25,979 nucleotides of DNA from Pyrinomonadaceae bacterium (GTDB taxonomy: Bacteria; Acidobacteriota; Blastocatellia; Pyrinomonadales; Pyrinomonadaceae). The stretch's first letter is position 1. Each line of letters starts with the position of its first letter. This document shows positions 12,187 through 25,979 of this stretch, piece after piece. The notes beneath the pieces were generated by a model. The model ran no database searches, was not told where the DNA came from, and saw only the letters and a list, made by a program, of their open reading frames with translations. The translations under genes were made by a program, and so were the position numbers. The DNA lies in contig DASQDV010000194.1 of assembly GCA_035633995.1 (NCBI GenBank), positions 1 through 25,979 of the forward strand, written 5' to 3'.

Positions 12187-12738
12187 TCAATCTTCCATTG
12201 TATAAATCGTCGCCGGATCGTCTTCGTGCCTGATCTCGTCTATTTCGGCGCGTTTGCCTTCGCCCATGTAGAGGCTGTTGGGGCAGTTGATGACGATGCC
12301 TGCCACGCTCCCGACGTTGCGATAAGCGTGGACGACGCCTTTCGGGACGAGCACCGCTTTCGGGTTGTCCGCGCCGACGTAGAGCGTCATCACCTGGTTG
12401 TAAGTTTCCGAATCCCGCCGGTTGTCCCACAAACGGAGCTTGAAATTCGAGGGGCCGATGAAGACGAAGAAGTCCGCCTGATCGACGTGCTCGTGCGGGC
12501 CGCGCTGCACATGCGGCTCGGTCGAGGAGATGTAAGACATGACCGGGAAATATTCCGCCTCCATCTCGTCGTGGCGGAACAACTCGGCGAGCCAGCCGCG
12601 CTCGTCCACGAACTTGCGCACGTCGCGGACGACCACATCGCGAATCTTCCCGCGCTTAAACTGCGGCGACGCCGTTTCCTGCTGCGGCTGCTGCTCCTCC
12701 TCCTCCTTCGGCGTCTGGCGCTTAGGCGTGGATTGCAT
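12187..12738 (-). CDS. dTDP-4-dehydrorhamnose 3,5-epimerase family protein (RmlC-like cupin)
   Basis: DERGWLAELFR, RGPHEH, VPKGVVHAY; overlaps the nucleotidyltransferase gene by 17 nt. Confidence 0.75.
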   Translation of the reverse strand: MQSTPKRQTPKEEEEQQPQQETASPQFKRGKIRDVVVRDVRKFVDERGWLAELFRHDEMEAEYFPVMSYISSTEPHVQRGPHEHVDQADFFVFIGPSNFKLRLWDNRRDSETYNQVMTLYVGADNPKAVLVPKGVVHAYRNVGSVAGIVINCPNSLYMGEGKRAEIDEIRHEDDPATIYTMED

Positions 12739-13486
12739 TAACGGCCTCCTTCCGGTTCTCCATCTTGTTGGCGCCCGTCTCGGCCACGAGCGTCCCGGCG
12801 TGCAGCAAACTCTCGAACGTGCCCGCGTCAGTCCACCAGCCTTCGAGTTCGTTCCAGGTCATCTCGCCGCGCTCGATGTAGGCGTTGTTCACGTCTGTGA
12901 TCTCAAGTTCGCCGCGCTCCGAAGGCTTGAGCGTCTTGATGATCTCGAACACTTCGGCGTCGTACATGTAGACGCCGATCACGGCGTAGTCGGACTTCGG
13001 CTGTTTCGGCTTCTCCTCGATGCGCACGACGCGCGACCCCTTGAGTTCGGGCACGCCGAAACGCTGCGGGTCGGAGACCTGCTTCAGGAGTATCTTTGCG
13101 CCGCCGCCCTGATGCCGGTAGGCGCGCACCGCCTGACAGATGTTGCCCTCGATGATGTTGTCGCCGAGGACGATGCAGACGGGTTCGCCGTCGGCGAAGT
13201 CTTCGCACAGAGAGAGGGCAGCCGCGATGCCGCCCTCGCCCTCCTGATACGTGTAGTTGAGGTGCTTGAGGCCGAACGCTCGCCCGTTCTTCAACAGCTT
13301 GAGAAAATCCCCGGCGGAGTTTCCGCCCGTCACGATCATGATGTCCCTGATCCCGGCGTTCACCAAAGTCTGAATCGGGTAATAAACCATCGGCTGATTA
13401 AAAACCGGCAGCAAGTGCTTATTCGTCACCGCCGTCAACGGCATCAGACGCGAGCCGAGCCCGCCAGCTAACACGATACCTTTCAC
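12722..13486 (-). CDS. rfbA: Sugar-1-phosphate nucleotidyltransferase (RmlA/RfbA/SpsI-like)
   Basis: KGIVLAGGLGSRLMPLT, NKHLLPV, VLGDNI, EEKPKQPKSDYAV, SERGELEITDVN, WTDAGTFESL. GTG start with GGAGGA SD. Confidence 0.85.
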   Translation of the reverse strand: MKGIVLAGGLGSRLMPLTAVTNKHLLPVFNQPMVYYPIQTLVNAGIRDIMIVTGGNSAGDFLKLLKNGRAFGLKHLNYTYQEGEGGIAAALSLCEDFADGEPVCIVLGDNIIEGNICQAVRAYRHQGGGAKILLKQVSDPQRFGVPELKGSRVVRIEEKPKQPKSDYAVIGVYMYDAEVFEIIKTLKPSERGELEITDVNNAYIERGEMTWNELEGWWTDAGTFESLLHAGTLVAETGANKMENRKEAVNAIHA

Positions 13487-15517: not shown

Positions 15518-16942
15518 TTAAGAATCTATCCTCTCGGAAAGCCCGCGCGCGATCTCAGCCCACTCGCTGTCGCGTTCGCGCCGCCACTGCTCGTAACGCC
15601 TGCGCGCCAGACGCTCCTGCGCCGCGCGCATCAACGCTTCCTTCTTCATCCGCGCCAGACGCTCACGCTCCTCGCTGCGCTCCTTCAAAAGCACGGCGCC
15701 GACCGACACGAAGATAAAATAGAAGACCAAAAGCTGCGACCGCTGCCGGTACGCCGTCCCCACGTTCCCCTGAAAGATCGAGTACGCCAATGTCAGCATC
15801 GTCGTGAAGATCAAAATCGGCAACGCCTGCCGCATACGGTAGCGCAGCGTGAACCAGATGCCCATCACGAGCAGCGGGAAGGATGCCCACCAGATGAACA
15901 TCTCTGGCAAGGTGATGCTCTGCCGCAGATTAGCCAACTGCCACGGAAATGGCGCGAACAACAGATACACCATGCCGAGCGGGATGGTTTGGAGCGCGCC
16001 CGAAGCGGTTGAAACGTCCACATCGCGCCCGAAGCCGGATTCGGTGGTCGCCAAATCGGCGCGGCTTCGCTGCACGCGTTCGAGGCTGCCGAACTCTTCA
16101 AACTGCTGGGTCGCGCGGCGCAGCACGCCGAAGTAAGTCATCGTCAACCCGATGGCGACGAGGACGACGAACTGCCGCATCAGAGATTGACTCGTGACGC
16201 GCCGCATCCCGATCATGAACGCCCCGCCCGCCGCCGCAATCGCCATGTAAAAGATGTAGAAGCGCAAGCTCAACAACCCGAGCAGCGCGCCGACGAGGAC
16301 GAGAAAAAATTTCGCGCTGAGTTGCTCGCCGAGCTTGAGCGTCGCCAGCATCGCGGCGACCAGACAGAAGATGATCGGCCCGTCTTTTAACCCCTGCGAC
16401 GACCACAGGACGAGTGAGGGGAAGAAGGCCACGAACAGCGCCGTCAAACGCGAAACGCGCGTGTTCTCAAACATGTGCTGCGCGCAGAGGTAAGCCAGCG
16501 GCGCGGTCGCCGCGCCGATCACCCCGTTGACGTACTGCACTGCGAGCAGGTTGCGCCCGATAGCGGCGTAGATGCCGCCGATCAGGTAGGCCATGCCCCA
16601 GCCGACCGACTCGTAACCCTGTAGCGGATTCTTGTAGAACGGGTCGCCCTGCCACGACTTCAACATCCACGTCCCGAGTTGGTCGTAGGCCGTCGCGTCG
16701 CCGCCGAAGAAGTCCTGTAGTTCGAAACCGAAGATGAGCGTGCCGACGAGCATCCTGACGAGCAGCCCGGCGATGAAAATATAGAACAGGAACGCGCGAT
16801 CAATTTCGATGCGACGCACGGCGAAGCCTGCGACGAGCGCGGCGACGAGGCAGACGAGCACCGCCGGCGCGCCGTAGGTCGGCACAAACACGGCGATGAC
16901 CAAACACATCGCCAATGCCATCACGGTAAGAACTGCGTTCAT
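15518..16942 (-). CDS. Polytopic membrane protein, GT-C/PMT-like or Wzy-like (paralog 2)
   Basis: About 11-12 TM segments; FFGGDATAYD, SQGLKDG, QGNVGTAYRQRSQL; strong similarity to 17006-18424. Confidence 0.75.
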   Translation of the reverse strand: MNAVLTVMALAMCLVIAVFVPTYGAPAVLVCLVAALVAGFAVRRIEIDRAFLFYIFIAGLLVRMLVGTLIFGFELQDFFGGDATAYDQLGTWMLKSWQGDPFYKNPLQGYESVGWGMAYLIGGIYAAIGRNLLAVQYVNGVIGAATAPLAYLCAQHMFENTRVSRLTALFVAFFPSLVLWSSQGLKDGPIIFCLVAAMLATLKLGEQLSAKFFLVLVGALLGLLSLRFYIFYMAIAAAGGAFMIGMRRVTSQSLMRQFVVLVAIGLTMTYFGVLRRATQQFEEFGSLERVQRSRADLATTESGFGRDVDVSTASGALQTIPLGMVYLLFAPFPWQLANLRQSITLPEMFIWWASFPLLVMGIWFTLRYRMRQALPILIFTTMLTLAYSIFQGNVGTAYRQRSQLLVFYFIFVSVGAVLLKERSEERERLARMKKEALMRAAQERLARRRYEQWRRERDSEWAEIARGLSERIDS

Positions 16943-17005
16943 AACCCCTGAATCGAAAACCCCGCGCGCCTTCGCCGACGCCGCCGTAGCCCGTTCGAGC
17001 CTTCG

Positions 17006-18424
17006 CTAGATCGGCTCGCGGTTCACGAAAGCCTCCGCCGCCGAAGCCGTGTGCGCTCCCGGCGCTCTGCGCGCGCGTGTGGCGCCCTCCCTGATCGCGC
17101 GGCGCTGCTCCTCCAACGCCATAGACACCTTGCGCTGCCTGTCCTCGCGCCGCTCCTTCAAGATGACGGCTCCAACCGACACGAAGATAAAATAGAAGAC
17201 CAGAAGCTGCGACCGCTGCCGGTACGCCGTCCCCACGTTCCCCTGAAAGATCGAGTATGCCAATGTCAGCATCGTCGTGAAGATCAAAATCGGCAACGCC
17301 GGTCTCATGCGATACTTTAACGTAAACCAGATGCCCATCACGAGCAGCGGGAAGGATGCCCACCAGATGAACATCTCCGGCAGCGTGATGCTCTGCCGCA
17401 AATTAGCCAACTGCCACGGAAACGGCGCGAACAACAAATACACCATGCCGAGCGGAATCGCCTGCAACGCGCCTTCGGTCGTCGAAACGTCAACGTCGCG
17501 CCCGAAGCCCGACTCGTAGCTCGCCAGATCGGAGCGGCTCCGCTGCACGCGTTCCAGATTGGCGTAAGTTTCAAACTGTGCGGTCGCCGTGCGCAGCACG
17601 CCCAGATATGTCATCGAAAGGCCGAGCGCGACGACGATAGCCATCTGCCTGATCACGCTGCCGGGGCCGACGGGCGGGCGAACGCCGATGAGCAGCGCGC
17701 CGCCCGCCGCCGCAATCGCCATGTAAAAGACGTAGAAGCGCAAACTCAGCAACCCGAACAGGGCGAAGACGAGCATCGCAAAAAATTTGACGCTCAAACC
17801 CTCGCTCAACTTGAGCGTCGCCAGCATCGCGGCCACGAGCAAAAAGACGATGGGCCCGTCCTTGAGCACCTGCGACGACCACAGGACGAGCGAGGGGAAG
17901 AAGGCCACGAGCACCGCCGTCAAACGCGAAACGCGCTTGTTCTCAAACATGTGCTGCGCACAAAGGTAAGCCAGCGGCGCGGTCGCCGCGCCGATCACCC
18001 CGTTGACATACTGCACCGCGAGCGAATTGCGCCCGACGAGCGAATAAACGACGGCCACGACATAGCCCAATCCCCACCCGCCGCTTGAGTAGCGCTCCGT
18101 CACGTTCTCGAATTCGGCGTTGCCCTGCCAACCTTCGATGATCCACAAGCCGAGTTGGTCGTAGCCCAGCGAATCGCCGCCGAAGAAGGCTTGCAGACGA
18201 AGCATGTAGATTCCCGTCGCCACGAGCACGCGCACGAACAGCGCGGCGGCGAAGAGTTGCAACATAAACTCTTTGTCGTGCCCTTCGAGAGTCAGGTTGA
18301 AGGCGACGAGCGCAATGCCCGCGCTGCTGATCAGGATGAGCACCGCCGGCGCGCCGACGCCGGGAAACATCATGATGATGCCGATGCAGAAAATAAACGC
18401 TAGGAGAACTAGAAATCCGTTCAT
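17006..18424 (-). CDS. Polytopic membrane protein, GT-C/PMT-like or Wzy-like (paralog 1)
   Basis: About 11-12 TM segments; FFGGDSLGYD, SQVLKDG, QGNVGTAYRQRSQL; tandem duplicate of 15518-16942. Confidence 0.75.
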   Translation of the reverse strand: MNGFLVLLAFIFCIGIIMMFPGVGAPAVLILISSAGIALVAFNLTLEGHDKEFMLQLFAAALFVRVLVATGIYMLRLQAFFGGDSLGYDQLGLWIIEGWQGNAEFENVTERYSSGGWGLGYVVAVVYSLVGRNSLAVQYVNGVIGAATAPLAYLCAQHMFENKRVSRLTAVLVAFFPSLVLWSSQVLKDGPIVFLLVAAMLATLKLSEGLSVKFFAMLVFALFGLLSLRFYVFYMAIAAAGGALLIGVRPPVGPGSVIRQMAIVVALGLSMTYLGVLRTATAQFETYANLERVQRSRSDLASYESGFGRDVDVSTTEGALQAIPLGMVYLLFAPFPWQLANLRQSITLPEMFIWWASFPLLVMGIWFTLKYRMRPALPILIFTTMLTLAYSIFQGNVGTAYRQRSQLLVFYFIFVSVGAVILKERREDRQRKVSMALEEQRRAIREGATRARRAPGAHTASAAEAFVNREPI

Positions 18425-20473: not shown

Positions 20474-21421
20474 TTACGCCTTCGACGCCTCTTCTCCCGT
20501 GCGACGCGCCCACGCGTACATGTAGGGGCTGCGCCCCAAAGCATTCGCCACGCGTTCGACGACGCGCGTGCCGACGCGCTCGACCCCGCCCCACACGCCG
20601 CCGCGACTCGGCACGACGAGGCCGCCCGGATAAACCACCAGATTTTCGATCCGAAAGTCGTTGCGCTCCAGCACGAAGCGCAGCGAGCGCGGGCTGAAAC
20701 CCTGTATGTGATAGAGATTCCACGTCGGGCAGAGATTCACCACCCAATCCAGCCCGCGCGCTTTGTAATAAAGATTCCCCAGACTTTGATAGACGCTCTC
20801 CTCGTTCGGCGTGCTGATGTACACCAGCCCGCCCGGTCGCACCACGCGCCGCAGTTCCCTCACCGTCTCCGCCGGGTCGTACAGGTGCTCGATGACCTCG
20901 ACGAGCGTGACCACATCGAACGAAGCGTCGGGGTAGTTCATCCCTTCGAGCGTCGCCGCCGTCGCGCGCACGCCGTTCACCTCGCGCGCGTAGCGCACGA
21001 AATCTTCCGACAGGTCGCAGCCTTCCGCCTCCCAGCCGCGCGCCTGCGCCGCCGCCACCACCTCGCCGCGCCCGCATCCCACGTCCAGAAAACGCCCGCG
21101 CCGCCCCAGAAGTCTTTCAGCCTCGCGCGCCAGCTTGTCGCCCAACTGCCGCTGGCTCTCGTCCGTCACGCTCATCACGCCTTCAAAGTAGCCGGAGACG
21201 TTTGTATAACGCGTGTCCTCGCCCGACGGGTAGGGCATGGGGTTCGGGAAGATCAAGTTGCAGGTGCGGCATTTGACGATGCGCGTTTTTGCGCCCGCGC
21301 CGTCGCGGTGCGCCTCGCCGCCGCGCGAACCGAGCACGCGAAAATCGCGCCCGCCGCACACCTTGCACGCCTCGTCGCGAAACTCCCACGCCTGCTGCTG
21401 CTGATGACCGTTGCCGCTCAT
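20474..21421 (-). CDS. Class I SAM-dependent methyltransferase with N-terminal CxxC...CxxC motif
   Basis: CKVC...CRTC, FLDVGCGRG, FDVVTLVEVIEHL, YISTPN. ATG at 21421; alternative GTG at 21457. Confidence 0.85.
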   Translation of the reverse strand: MSGNGHQQQQAWEFRDEACKVCGGRDFRVLGSRGGEAHRDGAGAKTRIVKCRTCNLIFPNPMPYPSGEDTRYTNVSGYFEGVMSVTDESQRQLGDKLAREAERLLGRRGRFLDVGCGRGEVVAAAQARGWEAEGCDLSEDFVRYAREVNGVRATAATLEGMNYPDASFDVVTLVEVIEHLYDPAETVRELRRVVRPGGLVYISTPNEESVYQSLGNLYYKARGLDWVVNLCPTWNLYHIQGFSPRSLRFVLERNDFRIENLVVYPGGLVVPSRGGVWGGVERVGTRVVERVANALGRSPYMYAWARRTGEEASKA

Positions 21422-21483
21422 GTCTTCACTCGACCCGCCTCGAAACACGGCGCACACACGCGCCGACGCGCTTCAGCCGCGAC

Positions 21484-23721
21484 CTACGGCGCAACTCCAC
21501 GCTTATCCAGTATGTAACGCTTGTCGGCGAAGATGCGCCGGACGGTGCTGAAAATCGAGCGGCTGATCCAATCGTCTTCCAGACAGAAGCGCGCCACCTC
21601 CGCACGCACGGGACGCCGTTTCCTGAGCGCGGTGCGGCATTGCAGGTAGCCCTGAAAATAACCGGCCAGCCCGTAGAAAAAGTATGCGAACGAGCGAAAG
21701 CGTATGCCGCGCAGCGTCAACCAGAACAGATTGCGCACGAAGACGAGCGGCAGAAAGCGCCACGGCAGATGTTTCAGGTTGAACCACGCGGCGTTGCGGA
21801 AACCGCGCCCGTAGCGTTTCCACGAACGCTGCTGCCGGCTCTCGCGGTGATACGACAGGCAGCGCGGCTCGTAGATGACTTTGTAGCCCGCGTCCCAGAG
21901 GCGTATGGCGAGATCGTCTTCGGTGGCGTAGATGAAAAAGTCGTCGTCGAAATAGCCGCACTCGTCCAGAACATCGCGCCGGATGGCCGCGCCGCACGCC
22001 GCGAAAGAAGTGATCTCGCGCTCGCGCCCCGGCTCGGTCGGAACTAATCGTTCTTCCCACAGGTGCGTCACGAGGCTGTTCAAATGCGGGTTCATCACGC
22101 GAAACGACATGACGCCCACGTCTTTATTCGCCTCGTCTTCCCACAGCTTCACCATCGTCTCGATTGATTCGGGCGCAAGGTGCGAGTCGTCGTCGAGCAT
22201 GGCGACGTACTTGCCGCGCGCCGTCGCAAAGCCGACGTTGTAGCCCGTCATGCCGGTGTTTTCGTGCAGGCGCACGACCGTCACTTCGGGAAACTTCTCG
22301 TAGATCATCTGCGCCGTCCCGTCCTTCGAGCCGTTGTCCACGACGATCAACTCGATGTTCGGGTAAGTCAGCTTGCGTAGTTCCTGCAAACCGATCTCGA
22401 CCTCGCCCTTGCGATTCCACGCGAGCATGACGATGCTCACGAGCGGCTGCGCCTCGCCCGCGCGCGCGAGCGCGGCGGCTTCGGGGCGGACGATGCCGAG
22501 GATGGTCTGCACGAGCACGGGCGCGCGGTGGCGACCCGGACGCGTGCGGTCTTCCAGATCGCGCACGGCGAGTTTGACGTTCGTGCCGCGCAGCGCCTCT
22601 TCGTCGAACGTGAAATAGCCTTCGACGCCCTGATGCTGCGGCACGTTGGCGATCAGGTAATGGTACGCGCCCTCGCCGACGTGTTCGTTGATCTTCTGCG
22701 CGAGTTCCCTGCCCGTCGCGCCGCGCGTGTCCGCCTCTTCGACGATGTTGACGACCATGATCTTCGTCGCCGTGCTTCGCCGGATCGCATCGCTGATGCC
22801 GTCAATCATCAGCGTCGGCAAAAGCGAAGAGTGGAACGTGCCCGGCCCGTAGATGATCACGTCGGCGCGCTCCAAAGCTTCGAGCGCGCCCGGGCTTGCT
22901 GCGGTCGGCGCGTGGACTTCACGACGAATGCGCTCGCGCGCCGCCTCCAAGCCCGACTCCGCGACCCACTTGTCCAGGCCGAGCGGCGCGACGCGCTCTT
23001 TGGCGAGAAAGAGTTCGAGGATGTCGCCGTCGGCGTCCGTGATGACGGCGCATTCGCTTGGGAGCACGCGCCCGTCCGTGCAGACCGCGAACAGGTGCCG
23101 GTTCTCTTCCGAAGCGATCTCGATGCGCCCGCGCACCTGCAAAACTTCTTCGAGCGCGCGCAGAGCCTGCGTCCAACTGCGCCCGTGCTCAAGATACGCG
23201 CCGAGCAGAATGCAGTTGCCGAGCGCGCAATCGGCGAAGGAAAACTCCGCGCCCTCCGTGCTTTCGCGCCTGACGAGTTCCGCTAAAAAGAGGCGCAGGT
23301 AATCTACGAACCGCTCGCGCGCGTCGGCGGGCATGCGCGCCACCATCTTCAACAGTTCGCGCCGCTCCCCGCGTGCCAGTGCCTCGCCGCCCGTCGCGCA
23401 GAGGTCTTCGATCTCGCGCCGGAAGTCTGCGGCGCGCTCTGCCTCCGCCGGGTAACGGTACGCGAAGACTTCGTAGCGCGACCAGTAGCCGGGCGCGTCG
23501 AGGTTCATCAGCGAGAGCAGATTTTTGCGCAGGTCGGAGGGGCCGAGTTCGTCGAAGACGTAGCGCAGGCGTCCGGTGCTCAAACCGTCGTCGTAGGCGT
23601 TGACGAGACAGGTGACGCGCGCGCCCTGATCGAGCAGTTGATTGGCGAGCGTGCCGCTGCCGCGCCCGCCGCACAATATGACGACGTGAAAGCCGCTGGC
23701 CGATTGAAGCAATTCTTTCAT
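21484..23721 (-). CDS. Fusion of a YvcK/CofD-like (UPF0052) N-terminal domain and a GT2 glycosyltransferase
   Basis: N-terminal part: VILCGGRGS, VNAYDDGLSTGRLR, GPSDLRKNL, LGNCILLG, ADVIIYGPGTFHSSLLPTL, GRH. C-terminal part: LVSIVMLAWNR, IVVDNGSKDGT, MLDDD, FDDDFFIYATEDDLAIRL. Confidence 0.85.
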   Translation of the reverse strand: MKELLQSASGFHVVILCGGRGSGTLANQLLDQGARVTCLVNAYDDGLSTGRLRYVFDELGPSDLRKNLLSLMNLDAPGYWSRYEVFAYRYPAEAERAADFRREIEDLCATGGEALARGERRELLKMVARMPADARERFVDYLRLFLAELVRRESTEGAEFSFADCALGNCILLGAYLEHGRSWTQALRALEEVLQVRGRIEIASEENRHLFAVCTDGRVLPSECAVITDADGDILELFLAKERVAPLGLDKWVAESGLEAARERIRREVHAPTAASPGALEALERADVIIYGPGTFHSSLLPTLMIDGISDAIRRSTATKIMVVNIVEEADTRGATGRELAQKINEHVGEGAYHYLIANVPQHQGVEGYFTFDEEALRGTNVKLAVRDLEDRTRPGRHRAPVLVQTILGIVRPEAAALARAGEAQPLVSIVMLAWNRKGEVEIGLQELRKLTYPNIELIVVDNGSKDGTAQMIYEKFPEVTVVRLHENTGMTGYNVGFATARGKYVAMLDDDSHLAPESIETMVKLWEDEANKDVGVMSFRVMNPHLNSLVTHLWEERLVPTEPGREREITSFAACGAAIRRDVLDECGYFDDDFFIYATEDDLAIRLWDAGYKVIYEPRCLSYHRESRQQRSWKRYGRGFRNAAWFNLKHLPWRFLPLVFVRNLFWLTLRGIRFRSFAYFFYGLAGYFQGYLQCRTALRKRRPVRAEVARFCLEDDWISRSIFSTVRRIFADKRYILDKRGVAP

Positions 23722-23766
23722 CTTAAACTACGAGGTGATCCTTGAACCTGCGAACAGGCACTCAAG

Positions 23767-23858
23767 CTTTCCGCGCCTTAAAGTTTTCCTCACTTCGCGC
23801 CTTTGTGTGGAAAACCGTTTTACGCAAAGGCGCAAAGTTAAAACGTAAGGCGCGAAGT
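23767..23858. repeat. Inverted repeat built from four AAGGCGCRAAG-type units (two reverse, two forward)
   Basis: CTTTCCGCGCCTTA and ACTTCGCGCCTTTGTGT on the left; ACGCAAAGGCGCAAAGT and ACGTAAGGCGCGAAGT on the right; symmetry centre near 23816. Confidence 0.75.
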
Positions 23859-23914
23859 AGTTCTGAATCCCACTCAAAAATATCCTTCTTCAGGAAAGCG
23901 TCAATAATGCACAA

Positions 23915-24946
23915 TCAAACTCGCGCCGACAAGCGCAGAATGTGCGCCAGGAAACGTTCGGTCGCCGCCGTGCCCGCCGCGCCCGTCATGCGCGCGAGCG
24001 AGACGACGCCCGCCGCCGCTTCCGCTTCGTGCCCGCCCGCGACCGACAAACACAGCGCGCGCGGGAAGAGTTGCGGGATCACATAATCGTTCCCGCCCGC
24101 GAAGAACTCGTCGCCGACATAAACGGACGCCTCTTCCACGTCGCCCTCGCACGCGCCCGACGACGCCGAAAGTTCCGCCATCGCGTCGCGCATCGCGGCC
24201 TCTTTCGAGACGCCGCGCCGCGTGATCTCGATGCTGCTGCGCCCGCTCTCGGCCAGTTCGTAACGGTCACTCAAACGCGCGCGTTGCAGCAACTCAAGCC
24301 CGCGTGCGTAAAGTTCCGCGCGTGGATTCGTCGTCGCCGCTGCGTCGTCCGCCGCCGCGTGAATCCGCGAAGGCACGGGGCGCAGCACGAGCACCGCGCC
24401 TTCGCGCTCCGACACGCGCGCGGGCAGCGTCGAGAAATCGAAGCGCGGGAACGCCGCCTCGTACCAACGCCCGCGCGCCTTCACGTCAACTTCAAACTCC
24501 GCCCATAGAGATTCGAGCAGACGGCTGAGCGCCGGAACGTCTTCGGCGCGCAGTTGATAACGCTCCCCGTAAACTTCGTCAACCTCACGGCGCGCGCCGT
24601 CGCAGACGATCTTCGTCGCGCCGCGATTGGCATAAACTCTGAGGCGTTCGACGCATGCCGCCTTGCCCGACTCGCGCAGGTTTTCAATAACGGGCGCGAC
24701 GAGGCGCGCTTCGAGTTGCCGCCAGCCGTGCCCCGTGATGAGACAGACGCGGAAGCCGCGCCGCAGCAGTTCGGGAAGCCCGGCGGCTGCCGCGCTCTCC
24801 GCGAAAGTCTCTTCGCCCGCGCCGCCGTCGGCGCGCACGCGCGCCAGGAGCGTGTCGTCAACGTCGAGCACGAGCGCGCCCTTTTGTCGCAGACGCTCGA
24901 CGCGCCCCGCGTCCATCAATTCCTCAAGTTCGACGCGCGCGTTCAT
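23915..24946 (-). CDS. HAD superfamily subfamily IIB phosphatase/phosphomutase-like protein
   Basis: Motif I LDVDDT, motif II LITGHG, motif III GVSKEAA, motif IV YVGDEFFAGGNDY. Start reassigned to ATG 24946, which forms an ATGA overlap with the upstream stop; the track's longer 25285 start lies inside the upstream gene. Confidence 0.8.
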   Translation of the reverse strand: MNARVELEELMDAGRVERLRQKGALVLDVDDTLLARVRADGGAGEETFAESAAAAGLPELLRRGFRVCLITGHGWRQLEARLVAPVIENLRESGKAACVERLRVYANRGATKIVCDGARREVDEVYGERYQLRAEDVPALSRLLESLWAEFEVDVKARGRWYEAAFPRFDFSTLPARVSEREGAVLVLRPVPSRIHAAADDAAATTNPRAELYARGLELLQRARLSDRYELAESGRSSIEITRRGVSKEAAMRDAMAELSASSGACEGDVEEASVYVGDEFFAGGNDYVIPQLFPRALCLSVAGGHEAEAAAGVVSLARMTGAAGTAATERFLAHILRLSARV

Positions 24947-25947
24947 GCCGTCTCGACAGCGCCGCCCGCACACAACCTGTTTGCCGTCTCGCGCGCCGCC
25001 TGCTCGCACCATGCGCGCACTTCCGCGTCGCCCGCAACGGACGCACCGCGCACCTCCGCTGCGAGCGCATCGGGCAGGTAGCGGCGCAGGCTGTCGGCGT
25101 GCGGCAGGCAGACCCGCCCGCCCATCTCCCGCGCGCCGACGTAGCGCGCGGCAAGCGCGGATTGCGCGAGCGAGCGCGGGATGAGCCACGCGCTCGCGCC
25201 GCGCCACACGACGTTGCAGGGCACGCGCCGCTCGCCGCTCGCCGCGCTCCCTCGTGCGAGCGCAGAGAGCATCTCGAACAACCACGCGGCCAGATTCTCC
25301 GTGCGCTTCGATTCGACCGCGAGCACGTAAGCCGGATACGACTCGGCAAGGCGCGACACGCGGAAGTCTCCCGATTCGTAGAGCATCTCCGCCACGCCCG
25401 CCGCGCCGTGCGACATGGGAAACTCCCAGGGGTAGGCTTGAAAGTGTGCCCAGTCAACGATGGAGGCGGCGGCCTGCTCCATGTTGTGTATGAACGTCCA
25501 AGCCCCGTGTGCGCGCGCGAGGCGCGAGAGGTCGAGCACGTCTGCGTGCGTCAGTTCGGCGCGCTTCTCTTCCGGCCAGATGACGAGATGACCGGGCACG
25601 ATGCTGTTCGGGTTGGCGGCCACGTTGAGCCCGCCCGCGCGCGCGAGTTGCAGGCGGCTCATCAATTCGAGATCGAAGGTCGCCGCCTGATTTTCCGGCA
25701 AACTCCCGACGCGCGTTTTGTAATCCTCGCGCGCCTTGCTGTAAAAGACCGTGCCCCAGCCGTACTCGCCGCAAGCGTCTCCGACGGCGTGCAACACCAG
25801 CAGGCGCGAATCGTAGCGCACCAGCCCGGACGCGTGCCGCTCCCACCACAAGTCCATCAACGCGTGCGACTGCGCCGCGCCGTCGTCTTGTTGCGCGGCG
25901 GTCGCTCGCGTGGTCGTTGACGATGATGTTGAGGCCGTTTCGTTCAA
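24943..25947 (-). CDS. HIT-like (GalT/Ap4A-phosphorylase/VTC2-type, DUF4922-like) nucleotidyl transferase or phosphorylase; possibly 5'-truncated
   Basis: NPNSIVPGHLVI and FIHNMEQAAASIVDWAHFQAYP resemble the NPxxxxxxHxxI and N...AgAS..HxHxQ signatures. The frame stays open from the TTG at 25947 to the window end. Confidence 0.6.
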   Translation of the reverse strand: MNETASTSSSTTTRATAAQQDDGAAQSHALMDLWWERHASGLVRYDSRLLVLHAVGDACGEYGWGTVFYSKAREDYKTRVGSLPENQAATFDLELMSRLQLARAGGLNVAANPNSIVPGHLVIWPEEKRAELTHADVLDLSRLARAHGAWTFIHNMEQAAASIVDWAHFQAYPWEFPMSHGAAGVAEMLYESGDFRVSRLAESYPAYVLAVESKRTENLAAWLFEMLSALARGSAASGERRVPCNVVWRGASAWLIPRSLAQSALAARYVGAREMGGRVCLPHADSLRRYLPDALAAEVRGASVAGDAEVRAWCEQAARETANRLCAGGAVETA

Positions 25948-25979
25948 ACGTTCACCCGCCCGCGTGAGGACTTTCCGAC

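Follow-up and report, generated by a model that had tools for sequence, protein, structure and literature searches.

This locus raises the question of what three consecutive genes, here termed g1, g2, and g3, contribute together to a surface glycan of a Pyrinomonadaceae bacterium. All three lie on the minus strand of the window, i.e., the whole stretch of DNA analyzed (25,979 nucleotides), which is an entire contig (C194). Besides the trio, the surface-glycan locus carries genes for a WecA-type initiating transferase and a Wzy_C protein, for transferases of the GT1 and GT-C types, for AsnB and a carbamoyltransferase, and for methyltransferases. A SAM-dependent methyltransferase (positions 20,474-21,457, minus strand; Pfam Methyltransf_23/11) adjoins g3, and two tandem GT-C (PMT_2, ArnT-like) membrane glycosyltransferases are encoded at 15,518-18,424 on the same strand (Pfam PMT_2). 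The preliminary description placed the trio at the head of the locus; since the window is a whole contig, this appearance is a contig-end artefact. The loci of relatives carry GT1, GT2, and further glycan genes upstream of the trio, and the upstream GT1 has its N-terminal half on another contig of the same genome (G000, contig C534).

The reading frame of g1 (24,943-25,857) is open up to position 25,977, i.e., to the window end, and ends with a TGA stop codon at 24,945-24,943. Two starts were considered, an ATG at 25,857 and a TTG at 25,947; homology with relatives begins only at about residue 29-30 of the TTG open reading frame, and therefore the ATG, giving a protein of 304 amino acids, is the likely start. 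Direct reading of the sequence bore out the described arrangement of three consecutive co-oriented genes, in which the stop codon of g1 overlaps the start codon of g2 by an ATGA (24,943-24,946, minus strand). The overlap, found identically as 4 nt in the close relatives L001 and L002, is consistent with translational coupling of g1 and g2. The second gene (23,915-24,946; ATG at 24,946-24,944, stop at 23,915) encodes 343 amino acids. It is separated from g3 (21,484-23,721; 745 amino acids) by a 193-nt spacer (23,722-23,914, minus strand) that is structured as a nested hairpin (-66.4 kcal/mol, z -4.4) and holds one sigma-70-like site against 0.5 expected, no more than chance in the promoter scan. 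The equivalent spacer is merely 10-13 nt in L002 and L003.

Co-localization of the genes in other genomes, on which the preliminary description had made its proposal depend, was found throughout. All 13 assessable loci of GTDB species representatives keep the order g1-g2-g3-methyltransferase, as do three further metagenome or MAG contigs. All 16 assessable loci lie within glycan loci and have the methyltransferase downstream of g3; they include a divergent 'Dongia sp.' MAG (34-67% identity). In one MAG (L026), g1 and g2 are fused in frame. PMT_2 genes recur with the cassette as well (L001, L003, L012, L015, and L033). Both g1 and g2 belong to small families, with only about 10 cluster representatives below 1e-30 among 1.84 billion proteins. 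In word-indexed searches, the longest contigs of many g1 and g2 matches equal in size those of g3 matches, which suggests shared contigs. Among 121 genomes of the family, g1 and the g3-type domain are confined to G000 and G047; the remaining genomes, except G105, have at most a housekeeping YvcK match of about 350 amino acids.

The g1 protein matches Pfam DUF4922 just above the cut-off (24.3 bits versus 23.6), a family named in the preliminary description. The HxHxQ motif attributed to it was misread: with residues numbered along the TTG open reading frame, the motif is W166-A-H168-F-Q170, with Trp at the position of the first His, and it is invariant in 25 homologs (alignment A3), as are N112-P-N-S and G119-H120. 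The AlphaFold model (pLDDT 74) is weak in the active-site loop (residues 161-173, pLDDT <50). Foldseek matched it to Apa2 with probability 0.99 and to GalT, and the alignment with Apa2 (VIA-align Z 10.8, model residues 22-316) covers the whole protein. Identity to solved members of the GalT branch is only 12-14%; more distant relatives of g1 combine DUF4922 with an ATP_transf domain. As judged from the model, g1 is predicted to be a complete two-lobed HIT enzyme of the GalT/Apa2/GDPGP1 branch (DUF4922), i.e., a nucleotidyltransferase- or phosphorylase-like protein. It shares with yeast Apa2 (Ap4A phosphorylase), GalT, ADP-glucose phosphorylase, and GDPGP1/VTC2 the two-lobed fold, the motif residues His (the nucleophile) and Gln, and the upstream N-P-N-S...G-H element. 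It differs from them in the invariant Trp, in belonging to a tiny clade almost confined to Pyrinomonadaceae MAGs, and in its linkage with HAD-IIB and YvcK-like::GT2 proteins. GDPGP1/VTC2, Apa2, and ADP-glucose phosphorylase are phosphorylases, and GalT-branch HIT enzymes such as GDPGP1 and Apa2 physiologically break down NDP-X; thus, g1 could degrade a donor instead of making it.

All four HAD catalytic motifs are present in g2, with D28-x-D30-x-T32, T71-G72, K248, and G278-D279...N286-D287 invariant (alignment A4). The well-modeled protein (pLDDT 91.5) has a HAD-IIB fold with an enlarged cap bearing the invariant arginines R181, R189, and R209. The earlier HAD-IIB assignment holds for fold and motifs; by profile, g2 stays below the TIGR01484 cut-off (25 bits) and has no match in the Pfam search. 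Its best fold match is the PMM-like alpha-phosphoglucomutase 4bnd, and ISN1, trehalose-6-phosphate phosphatases, and PMM1/2 are also among the top matches; ISN1 and the trehalose-6-phosphate phosphatases score almost equally to 4bnd, so mutases and phosphatases of the HAD-IIB class are not told apart by the fold. The model points to a phosphotransferase of the HAD-IIB class that would act as a phosphatase or as a PMM-type mutase. HAD-IIB PMMs, the atypical 4bnd, and the sugar-phosphate phosphatases have the same C2B-capped fold and four catalytic motifs; the length of 343 amino acids, the larger cap, and the profile scores set g2 apart.

In g3, a CofD-superfamily (YvcK/UPF0052-type) domain (residues 13-361, 22,639-23,685; Pfam CofD 1.8e-43, 149 bits) is fused to a C-terminal GT2 glycosyltransferase domain (residues 429-745, 21,484-22,437; Pfam GT2 1.7e-24, 87 bits), both on the minus strand. 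The superfamily and GT2 assignments of the preliminary description stand, whereas the sequence speaks against a true CofD: g3 scores only 28 bits against F420_cofD (cut-off 257), and its subfamily profile matches only UPF0052 structures in PDB (e.g., 2hzb), with no CofD or FbiA structure among the matches. The N-terminal domain has the invariant motifs G18-G19-x-G21, D44-D45-G-x-S-T-G, L-G-P-S-D63-x-R-K-N, and Y-G-x-G-T-x-H-S-S-x-x-P (subfamily alignment A5). Its nearest solved relatives by sequence are YvcK/GlmR/CuvA proteins (UPF0052; 2hzb, 2o2z, 2ppv, 2q7x, and 2p0y; E 1e-35 with the subfamily profile), UDP-sugar-binding proteins with ties to envelope sugar metabolism. From these g3 differs by a score under the TIGR01826 cut-off (127 versus 196 bits), an insertion of about 90 amino acids, the GT2 fusion, and its place in a variable glycan locus. 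The same genome has a second, housekeeping YvcK-like copy on contig C506. The GT2 domain is intact: it has the motif D510-D-D512 and ends in a tail that is amphipathic, aromatic, and basic, and no transmembrane helix is predicted in it (maximum hydropathy 1.28). It is 92-95% identical among close relatives. Chondroitin synthases, heparosan synthases, and PglI are its nearest solved relatives; DPMS and GtrB are absent from the solved relatives found.

Comparison with seven distant loci that share the YvcK-like subfamily (L004, L005, L012, and L015-L018, of which L012 belongs to G105 of the same family) lent independent support to the activation half of the preliminary description, as a nucleotidyltransferase and usually a HAD protein occur there where g1 and g2 sit. 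A canonical NTP_transf_3/IspD-type nucleotidyltransferase is adjacent in 7/7 loci, GT2 is present in 7/7, and a HAD protein, fused or adjacent, in five, including L012. GlmU was the best NCBIfam match of the two nucleotidyltransferases examined (L015 and L016), and the beta-phosphoglucomutase family that of the sole HAD protein examined (L015). One distant protein is a nucleotidyltransferase-YvcK-like-GT2 triple fusion; in L016-L018 the nucleotidyltransferase is IspD-like and has SDR neighbors; a methyltransferase adjoins the cassettes of L004, L005, and L015.

This uncharacterized canonical cassette (HAD, GlmU/IspD-like nucleotidyltransferase, YvcK/CofD-like::GT2, and a small DPMS-like GT2, with or without methyltransferase and GT-C) resembles the trio in several respects. 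The YvcK-like domains are 27-31% identical and have the insertion and the A5 motifs in common, they are fused to GT2, the HAD protein and nucleotidyl-transfer enzyme are encoded directly upstream, and an adjacent methyltransferase, PMT_2 genes, and a glycan-locus setting recur. In the trio, a HIT-fold GalT/Apa2-type enzyme stands in for the canonical nucleotidyltransferase and the PMM-like HAD-IIB g2 for the beta-PGM-like HAD-IA protein. The small DPMS-like GT2 has no counterpart next to the trio, and the fused GT2 of g3 is an intact domain with very strong conservation that falls in a non-DPMS subgroup; because of this difference in subgroup the cassettes are perhaps not strictly equivalent. 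The parallel supports a model in which g1 and g2 would fill the nucleotidyltransferase and HAD roles in dedicated supply and use of an NDP donor, and by this analogy the trio may be a non-orthologous counterpart of the widespread HAD + nucleotidyltransferase + YvcK-like::GT2 cassette.

On balance, we regard it as probable, by a modest measure, that g1-g2-g3 form one conserved functional cassette of the surface-glycan locus, by which a dedicated NDP-X donor is made and used. In the proposed pathway, g2 would supply a phosphomonoester X-1-P: as a PMM-type mutase it would convert hexose-6-P to hexose-1-P, or else it would trim a bisphosphate. His168 of g1 would then carry NMP from a nucleotide donor to X-1-P, yielding a dedicated NDP-X, for which an unusual NDP-hexose is the simplest candidate. 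The bifunctional g3 would take NDP-X, its YvcK-like domain binding or handling it and its GT2 domain adding the residue to the lipid-linked glycan, and the adjacent methyltransferase would methylate the added residue. The analysis shows how the genes are built, their folds and catalytic motifs, the strict synteny, the natural g1-g2 fusion, and the parallel with the canonical cassette; we infer the substrates, the direction of the g1 reaction, and what the YvcK-like domain does. YvcK binds UDP-sugars (PMC5482804), and Listeria GlmR is reported as an accessory uridyltransferase (PMC10128056). For the domain in g3, donor binding, hand-off, or regulation is slightly favored, at less than even odds, with CofD-type phosphotransfer close behind; GlmR-type nucleotidyl transfer is unlikely, and some weight is kept for a role outside these three.

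A different use of the donor, put forward in the preliminary description, follows the logic of coenzyme F420 synthesis, where a nucleotidyl-transfer enzyme (CofC/FbiD) is likewise paired with a CofD-superfamily protein (CofD/FbiA). By this analogy g1, with a substrate from g2, would make an NDP-activated non-sugar or sugar-1-phosphate donor, and the YvcK/CofD-like domain would catalyze a reaction in which a glycan hydroxyl attacks the beta-phosphate and NMP is released, leaving a phosphodiester-linked substituent next to the GT2-added sugar. In FbiA/CofD, the acceptor hydroxyl directly attacks the beta-phosphate of NDP-X, and the metal is held by two aspartates (PMC7253369). The g3 domain belongs to the CofD superfamily and keeps the acidic region (invariant D44, D45, and D63), so that phospho-X transfer is conceivable; the constant nucleotidyltransferase pairing, including the triple fusion, mirrors CofC-CofD, and the IspD-like nucleotidyltransferase and SDR of L016-L018 resemble CDP-polyol synthases. 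However, the domain falls in the YvcK/UPF0052 arm by both equivalog score and structure matches, YvcK proteins described as UDP-sugar binders conserve identical acidic motifs, and phosphodiester synthesis is known for no YvcK-type protein. The trio differs from the F420 system in that it lacks an F420 context, its activating enzyme is HIT-fold and not MobA-like, its CofD-like domain is fused to a glycosyltransferase, and the acceptor would be a glycan. A further point against the scheme is that the canonical-cassette enzymes examined look sugar-1-P-type (GlmU-like, beta-PGM-like), for which an ordinary NDP-sugar would suffice. We consider this scheme rather unlikely, though it deserves weight.

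The trio might instead serve proofreading or recycling, with g1 acting as an NDP-sugar phosphorylase (NDP-X + Pi to X-1-P + NDP, like GDPGP1), g2 dephosphorylating X-1-P, and the YvcK-like domain only sensing UDP-sugar and tuning GT2. Phosphorylases are the characterized relatives of g1 and are present among its fold matches, sugar-phosphate phosphatases are common among HAD-IIB enzymes, and the best-known role of YvcK/GlmR is that of a regulator that binds UDP-GlcNAc (PMC5482804, PMC7525490). However, one would not expect translational coupling, fusion, and strict synteny with a transferase in biosynthetic loci from a degradative pair, and the parallel cassettes hold there biosynthetic nucleotidyltransferases (GlmU/IspD-like where examined) that are incapable of phosphorylase action; such a role is improbable. 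Chance adjacency of housekeeping g1 and g2, unrelated to g3 and the glycan, could appeal to the structured 193-nt spacer and its promoter-like site, but is scarcely credible given the 16/16 syntenic loci, the presence of g1 in only 2/121 family genomes, exactly those two with the g3-type domain, and the spacers of L002 and L003.

Making and using a dedicated NDP-X donor remains our preferred role for the trio, and the interpretation given in the preliminary description is partly supported, namely in its activation half. In agreement with that description, literature searches found no characterized pathway or example with this three-gene combination, and the HIT/HAD-IIB version of the cassette appears new. 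In these soil Acidobacteria (Pyrinomonadaceae), the trio most likely makes a special nucleotide-activated building block and attaches it to the surface glycan.

The window is the entire contig C194 (25,979 bp) of a fragmented metagenome-assembled genome (MAG; 912 contigs, 4.7 Mb, 82% completeness). Every credible gene in it is encoded by the minus strand, and together these genes constitute a surface-glycan locus. The three genes under study, g1, g2 and g3, are real, and the ATGA overlap of g1 and g2 at 24943-24946 is read in the sequence exactly as in the preliminary description: the g1 stop codon TGA occupies 24945-24943, and g2 starts with the ATG at 24946-24944 and ends at 23915. A spacer of 193 nt separates g2 from g3, which occupies 23721-21484. 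In all relatives, homology with g1 starts at about residue 30 of the longest reading frame, which makes the ATG at 25857 the likely start of a 304-aa gene that is complete within the window. The trio is followed by genes for a methyltransferase, a carbamoyltransferase, two tandem PMT_2 (GT-C) proteins, an AsnB-type amidotransferase, a sugar-1-phosphate nucleotidyltransferase, an RmlC-like protein, a GT1 glycosyltransferase, an SDR epimerase/dehydratase, a WecA/MraY-type transferase, a TPR protein, a Wzy_C protein, a methyltransferase, and an AMP-binding enzyme. Within this series, a 183-aa ORF at 12187-12738 has Pfam matches to both dTDP_sugar_isom (RmlC-like) and Polysacc_synt_C, an odd pairing for a short protein, and the gene calls around it overlap those at 12539-13486.

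The trio had been described as heading the locus; it is instead located mid-locus, a GT1 gene and further glycan genes preceding g1 in every relative. A contig-edge fragment of the same MAG (contig C534, 3-614, locus L014) encodes the N-terminal 208 aa of this GT1, with 81% identity to the protein of the congener G047. Thus, C534 probably abuts the right end of the window, and the glycan locus runs on there. The g2-g3 spacer (23722-23914, 193 nt) has a nested hairpin fold of high stability (-66 kcal/mol, z -4.4), the arms of which include CTTCGCGCCTT and AAGGCGCGAAG. This hairpin resembles palindromic junction elements noticed earlier at other positions of the window. The equivalent gap is just 10-13 nt in the relatives L002 and L003, indicating that operon organisation is the ancestral state. 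A promoter and terminator scan of 21300-25979 revealed no excess over chance.

When GTDB was scanned with one genome per species, 17 loci encoding g1 were identified, in 15 Pyrinomonadaceae MAGs, one unclassified Acidobacteriota MAG, and one 'Dongia sp.' MAG. In each of the 13 loci of sufficient length, tblastn placed g1, g2, both g3 domains, and the methyltransferase in one constant order and orientation; the other four contigs stop inside g1 or g2. The same arrangement was observed on three further contigs, L001-L003 (in the locus set, L001 and L029 are one record, and L013 and L023 duplicate each other), and locus L026 has an in-frame fusion of g1 with g2. A lack of co-localisation had been set beforehand as the refuting outcome; the trio co-localised in all assessable loci, with glycan neighbours throughout. 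Among 121 genomes of the family, g1 and the g3-type domain are present only in the MAG of the window and its congener G047, and one further genome, G105, contains a more distant form of the cassette. The tally includes the unpublished genomes G017 and G110, which contributed housekeeping-YvcK matches only and bear on no other result. This restricted distribution indicates that the module is an accessory, locus-specific unit, and such units are typical of variable glycan loci.

The 'uncultured Dongia sp.' MAG (CAZUAL010000051.1, locus L033) contains the whole cassette, GT1-g1-g2-g3-methyltransferase-...-PMT_2, together with a Wzx-type flippase, at 34-67% identity. As the label of this MAG is alphaproteobacterial, the cassette there reflects either horizontal transfer or mis-binning. 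The g3 protein of this locus (P0034) has 730 aa; an N-terminal truncation of its CofD-like domain was rejected as an artefact of a 100-N run, with residues 1-43 located upstream of the gap. Conservation is uneven among the Pyrinomonadaceae relatives (window 21484-22461 vs 22462-25857): identity is 92-95% for the g3 GT2 domain, 61-85% for g1, and 58-80% for g2. In the congener, g3 (contig C104 of G047, L013/L007, 6876-9137) holds one in-frame TAA and is split into two ORFs, a possible pseudogene or assembly error.

A g1 profile had no match among PDB sequences, and a fold search was thus needed to classify this protein. The AlphaFold model (pLDDT 74) matches the yeast Ap4A phosphorylase Apa2 in Foldseek (probability 0.99) and aligns with it by VIA-align across model residues 22-316 (Z 10.7-10.8), followed by DUF4931 (8.2) and by GalT and ADP-glucose phosphorylase (4.3-5.9); uridylyltransferases are also among its fold matches. 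As modelled, g1 is a predicted nucleotide-binding enzyme formed by two tandem HIT-like half-barrels. The possibility that g1 lacks an N-terminal domain was ruled out, as relatives of 290-330 aa align end to end and the model matches full-length Apa2. The Pfam family DUF4922 matches g1 by a small margin (24.3 bits vs a threshold of 23.6) and at profile positions 80-144 only. The motif reported earlier as HxHxQ proved to be WxHxQ (W166-A-H168-F-Q170, numbered from the TTG at 25947): in the family alignment, the middle His and the Gln, which are the catalytic residues in the GalT-type motif, are invariant, and an invariant Trp takes the place of the first His. Further invariant elements are N-P-N-S...G-H. 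A profile search of 1.84 billion representatives retrieved about 10 close clusters only and, after a gap, DUF4922/ATP_transf proteins at E about 1e-16. Domains of the latter type related to g1 occur within very large proteins (3,000-6,500 aa; P0334, P0340, P0360, P0366, and P0380), P0340 additionally containing radical-SAM and GFO/IDH/MocA oxidoreductase domains; they seem to represent a class of multi-enzyme proteins that has yet to be explored. In P0349 and P0353, a full-length DUF4922 domain is joined to SpoIID, a peptidoglycan lytic transglycosylase activator domain, which may point to a function of other bacterial DUF4922 proteins connected with the cell wall.

The g2 protein is best classified as a divergent HAD-IIB member. 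All four HAD motifs are present, and their residues (D28, D30, T32, T71-G72, K248, G278-D279, and N286-D287) are invariant across 28 sequences. A Pfam scan of g2 gave no match, and TIGR01484 scored 25.1 bits, below its cut-off of 41.8. The structural model (pLDDT 91.5) contains the C2B cap fold, and its top fold matches in PDB and Swiss-Prot all belong to subfamily IIB. The best of these is the PMM-like alpha-phosphoglucomutase 4bnd (E 1.6e-12), followed by ISN1, trehalose-6-phosphate phosphatases, and PMM1/2, with phosphatases within one order of magnitude of 4bnd. The invariant cap arginines R181, R189, and R209 are compatible with either a mutase or a phosphatase.

The g3 protein matches the CofD superfamily (149 bits) and GT2 (PF00535, 87 bits) in Pfam, a fusion already labelled 'GT2/CofD-UPF0052' in the JGI annotation. 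By profile comparison, its N-terminal domain is of the YvcK/UPF0052 type: structures reached with the subfamily profile were UPF0052 only, with no CofD or FbiA. The F420 CofD equivalog TIGR01819 scored 28 bits against a cut-off of 257, and the YvcK model TIGR01826 scored 127 bits against 196, in three stretches. The domain differs from stand-alone YvcK (about 320-350 aa) by an insertion of about 90 aa and by the GT2 fusion, and a separate housekeeping YvcK-like gene was found on contig C506 of the same MAG. No F420 biosynthesis context was observed in the window or in 16 related loci, the neighbours of which are all glycan genes. Residues D44, D45, and D63 of g3 are invariant, and the window protein also has D57; these are candidate counterparts of the metal-binding aspartate pair of FbiA, D45 and D57 in that protein's own numbering. 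The GT2 domain has the acidic motif D510-D511-D512, read from the sequence, in accordance with a GT2 (GT-A) enzyme, and contains no transmembrane helix (maximum KD 1.28). Its nearest solved structures are chondroitin and heparosan synthases and PglI. A DPMS/GtrB/ArnC-type lipid-phosphate transferase is not supported for the HIT-type variant, given the different nearest relatives, the ArnC E of 1e-3, and the lack of a hydrophobic helix.

Comparison with seven distant loci (L004, L005, L012, and L015-L018) revealed a parallel cassette. Their g3 homologues, at 27-31% identity, have the insertion of about 90 aa and the invariant motif set in common with the window protein, and thus bear the same subfamily signature. 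An NTP_transf_3/IspD-type nucleotidyltransferase adjoins the YvcK-like protein in every one of them, and a HAD_2 enzyme is fused or adjacent to the nucleotidyltransferase in five; in one protein, the nucleotidyltransferase, YvcK-like, and GT2 domains form a triple fusion. The best match of the L015 and L016 nucleotidyltransferases is the GlmU uridyltransferase domain, and that of the L015 HAD moiety is the beta-phosphoglucomutase family. All seven loci contain a small GT2 of about 245 aa, one of which (L015) was examined and found to match both DPMS and AglJ. Recurrent members of these loci are methyltransferases and PMT_2 GT-C proteins, and an SDR epimerase/dehydratase is present in L016-L018. 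The window cassette resembles these loci in having a HAD and a nucleotidyl-transfer enzyme adjacent to the YvcK-like::GT2 protein, whereas the nucleotidyl-transfer enzyme is of the NTP_transf_3 type there and a HIT enzyme in the window clade. Phosphohexomutases occur in both HAD lineages, PMM-like HAD-IIB and beta-PGM-like, and HIT (GalT/Apa2-type) and nucleotidyltransferase enzymes both join NMP to a phosphomonoester. The two positions upstream of YvcK-like::GT2 in the Pyrinomonadaceae clade are held by non-homologous enzymes of apparently analogous chemistry.

This variant constrains the pathway: the activating step may be provided by a GlmU/IspD-type nucleotidyltransferase or a GalT/Apa2-type HIT enzyme, and the HAD partner may be beta-PGM-like or PMM-like. 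Such interchangeability suggests a route from a phosphomonoester to NDP-X, most simply from hexose 6-phosphate via hexose 1-phosphate to NDP-hexose. The most economical reading of the trio would comprise three steps: (i) g2 would supply X-1-phosphate, probably hexose 1-phosphate, (ii) g1 would move NMP onto X-1-phosphate via His168 to form NDP-X, and (iii) g3 would use NDP-X, its GT2 domain performing glycosyl transfer and the neighbouring methyltransferase modifying the product. The interpretation in the preliminary description is supported in part: synteny and the parallel cassettes support a conserved activation-and-use unit.

Three functions could be assigned to the YvcK-like domain: binding and hand-over of the donor, nucleotidyl transfer as in GlmR (PMC10128056), or a CofD-type reaction in which an acceptor hydroxyl would attack the beta-phosphate of NDP-X to form a phosphodiester, the attack described for FbiA (PMC7253369). 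The last of these corresponds to the phosphodiester transfer proposed earlier. On this reading, the YvcK/CofD-like domain would represent an unrecognised class of glycan phosphotransferase, taking an NDP donor made by a HIT-type (GalT-like) NMP transferase in place of a canonical nucleotidyltransferase and adding a phosphodiester-linked substituent (a sugar-1-phosphate, polyol-phosphate, or phospho-acid) beside the GT2-added residue. Superfamily membership and the conserved acidic motifs agree with this reaction; however, the same motifs are common to YvcK proteins, and we consider it rather unlikely. A degradative pair, with g1 as a phosphorylase and g2 as a phosphatase, would agree with the known activities of GDPGP1 and Apa2 but fits poorly with the g1-g2 fusion and coupling and with the biosynthetic nucleotidyltransferases in the parallel cassettes.

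Full-text literature searches found no characterised pathway with the combination of HIT, HAD-IIB, and YvcK-like::GT2 proteins, in agreement with the initial impression of the locus, and yielded no publication that deals with CofD/YvcK-GT2 fusions or connects bacterial DUF4922 with glycan synthesis. Each domain of the trio belongs to a known superfamily, and the HIT/HAD-IIB version is a variation on an uncharacterised cassette. The closest mention, made in passing, concerns Mycoplasma fermentans, in which a synthase has a CofD-family pseudogene and an NDP-nucleotidyltransferase as neighbours (PMC11658790).

The non-orthologous displacement of the activating enzymes limits the possible chemistry of the cassette, and a bacterial DUF4922 clade gains its first pathway context. 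In Firmicutes and mycobacteria, YvcK/GlmR/CuvA proteins are important for virulence and for the integrity of the envelope, and their biochemical role is debated between a UDP-sugar sensor, a GlmS activator, and an accessory uridyltransferase. A glycan-locus subfamily that is always wired to a dedicated nucleotide-activating enzyme and fused to a glycosyltransferase is a natural experiment on how this fold handles NDP-linked substrates. If the YvcK-like domain were indeed a phosphotransferase, the large and enigmatic YvcK/UPF0052 family would obtain a defined catalytic chemistry outside F420 synthesis. For the organisms themselves, the cassette points to modification of a surface glycan in abundant soil Acidobacteria.
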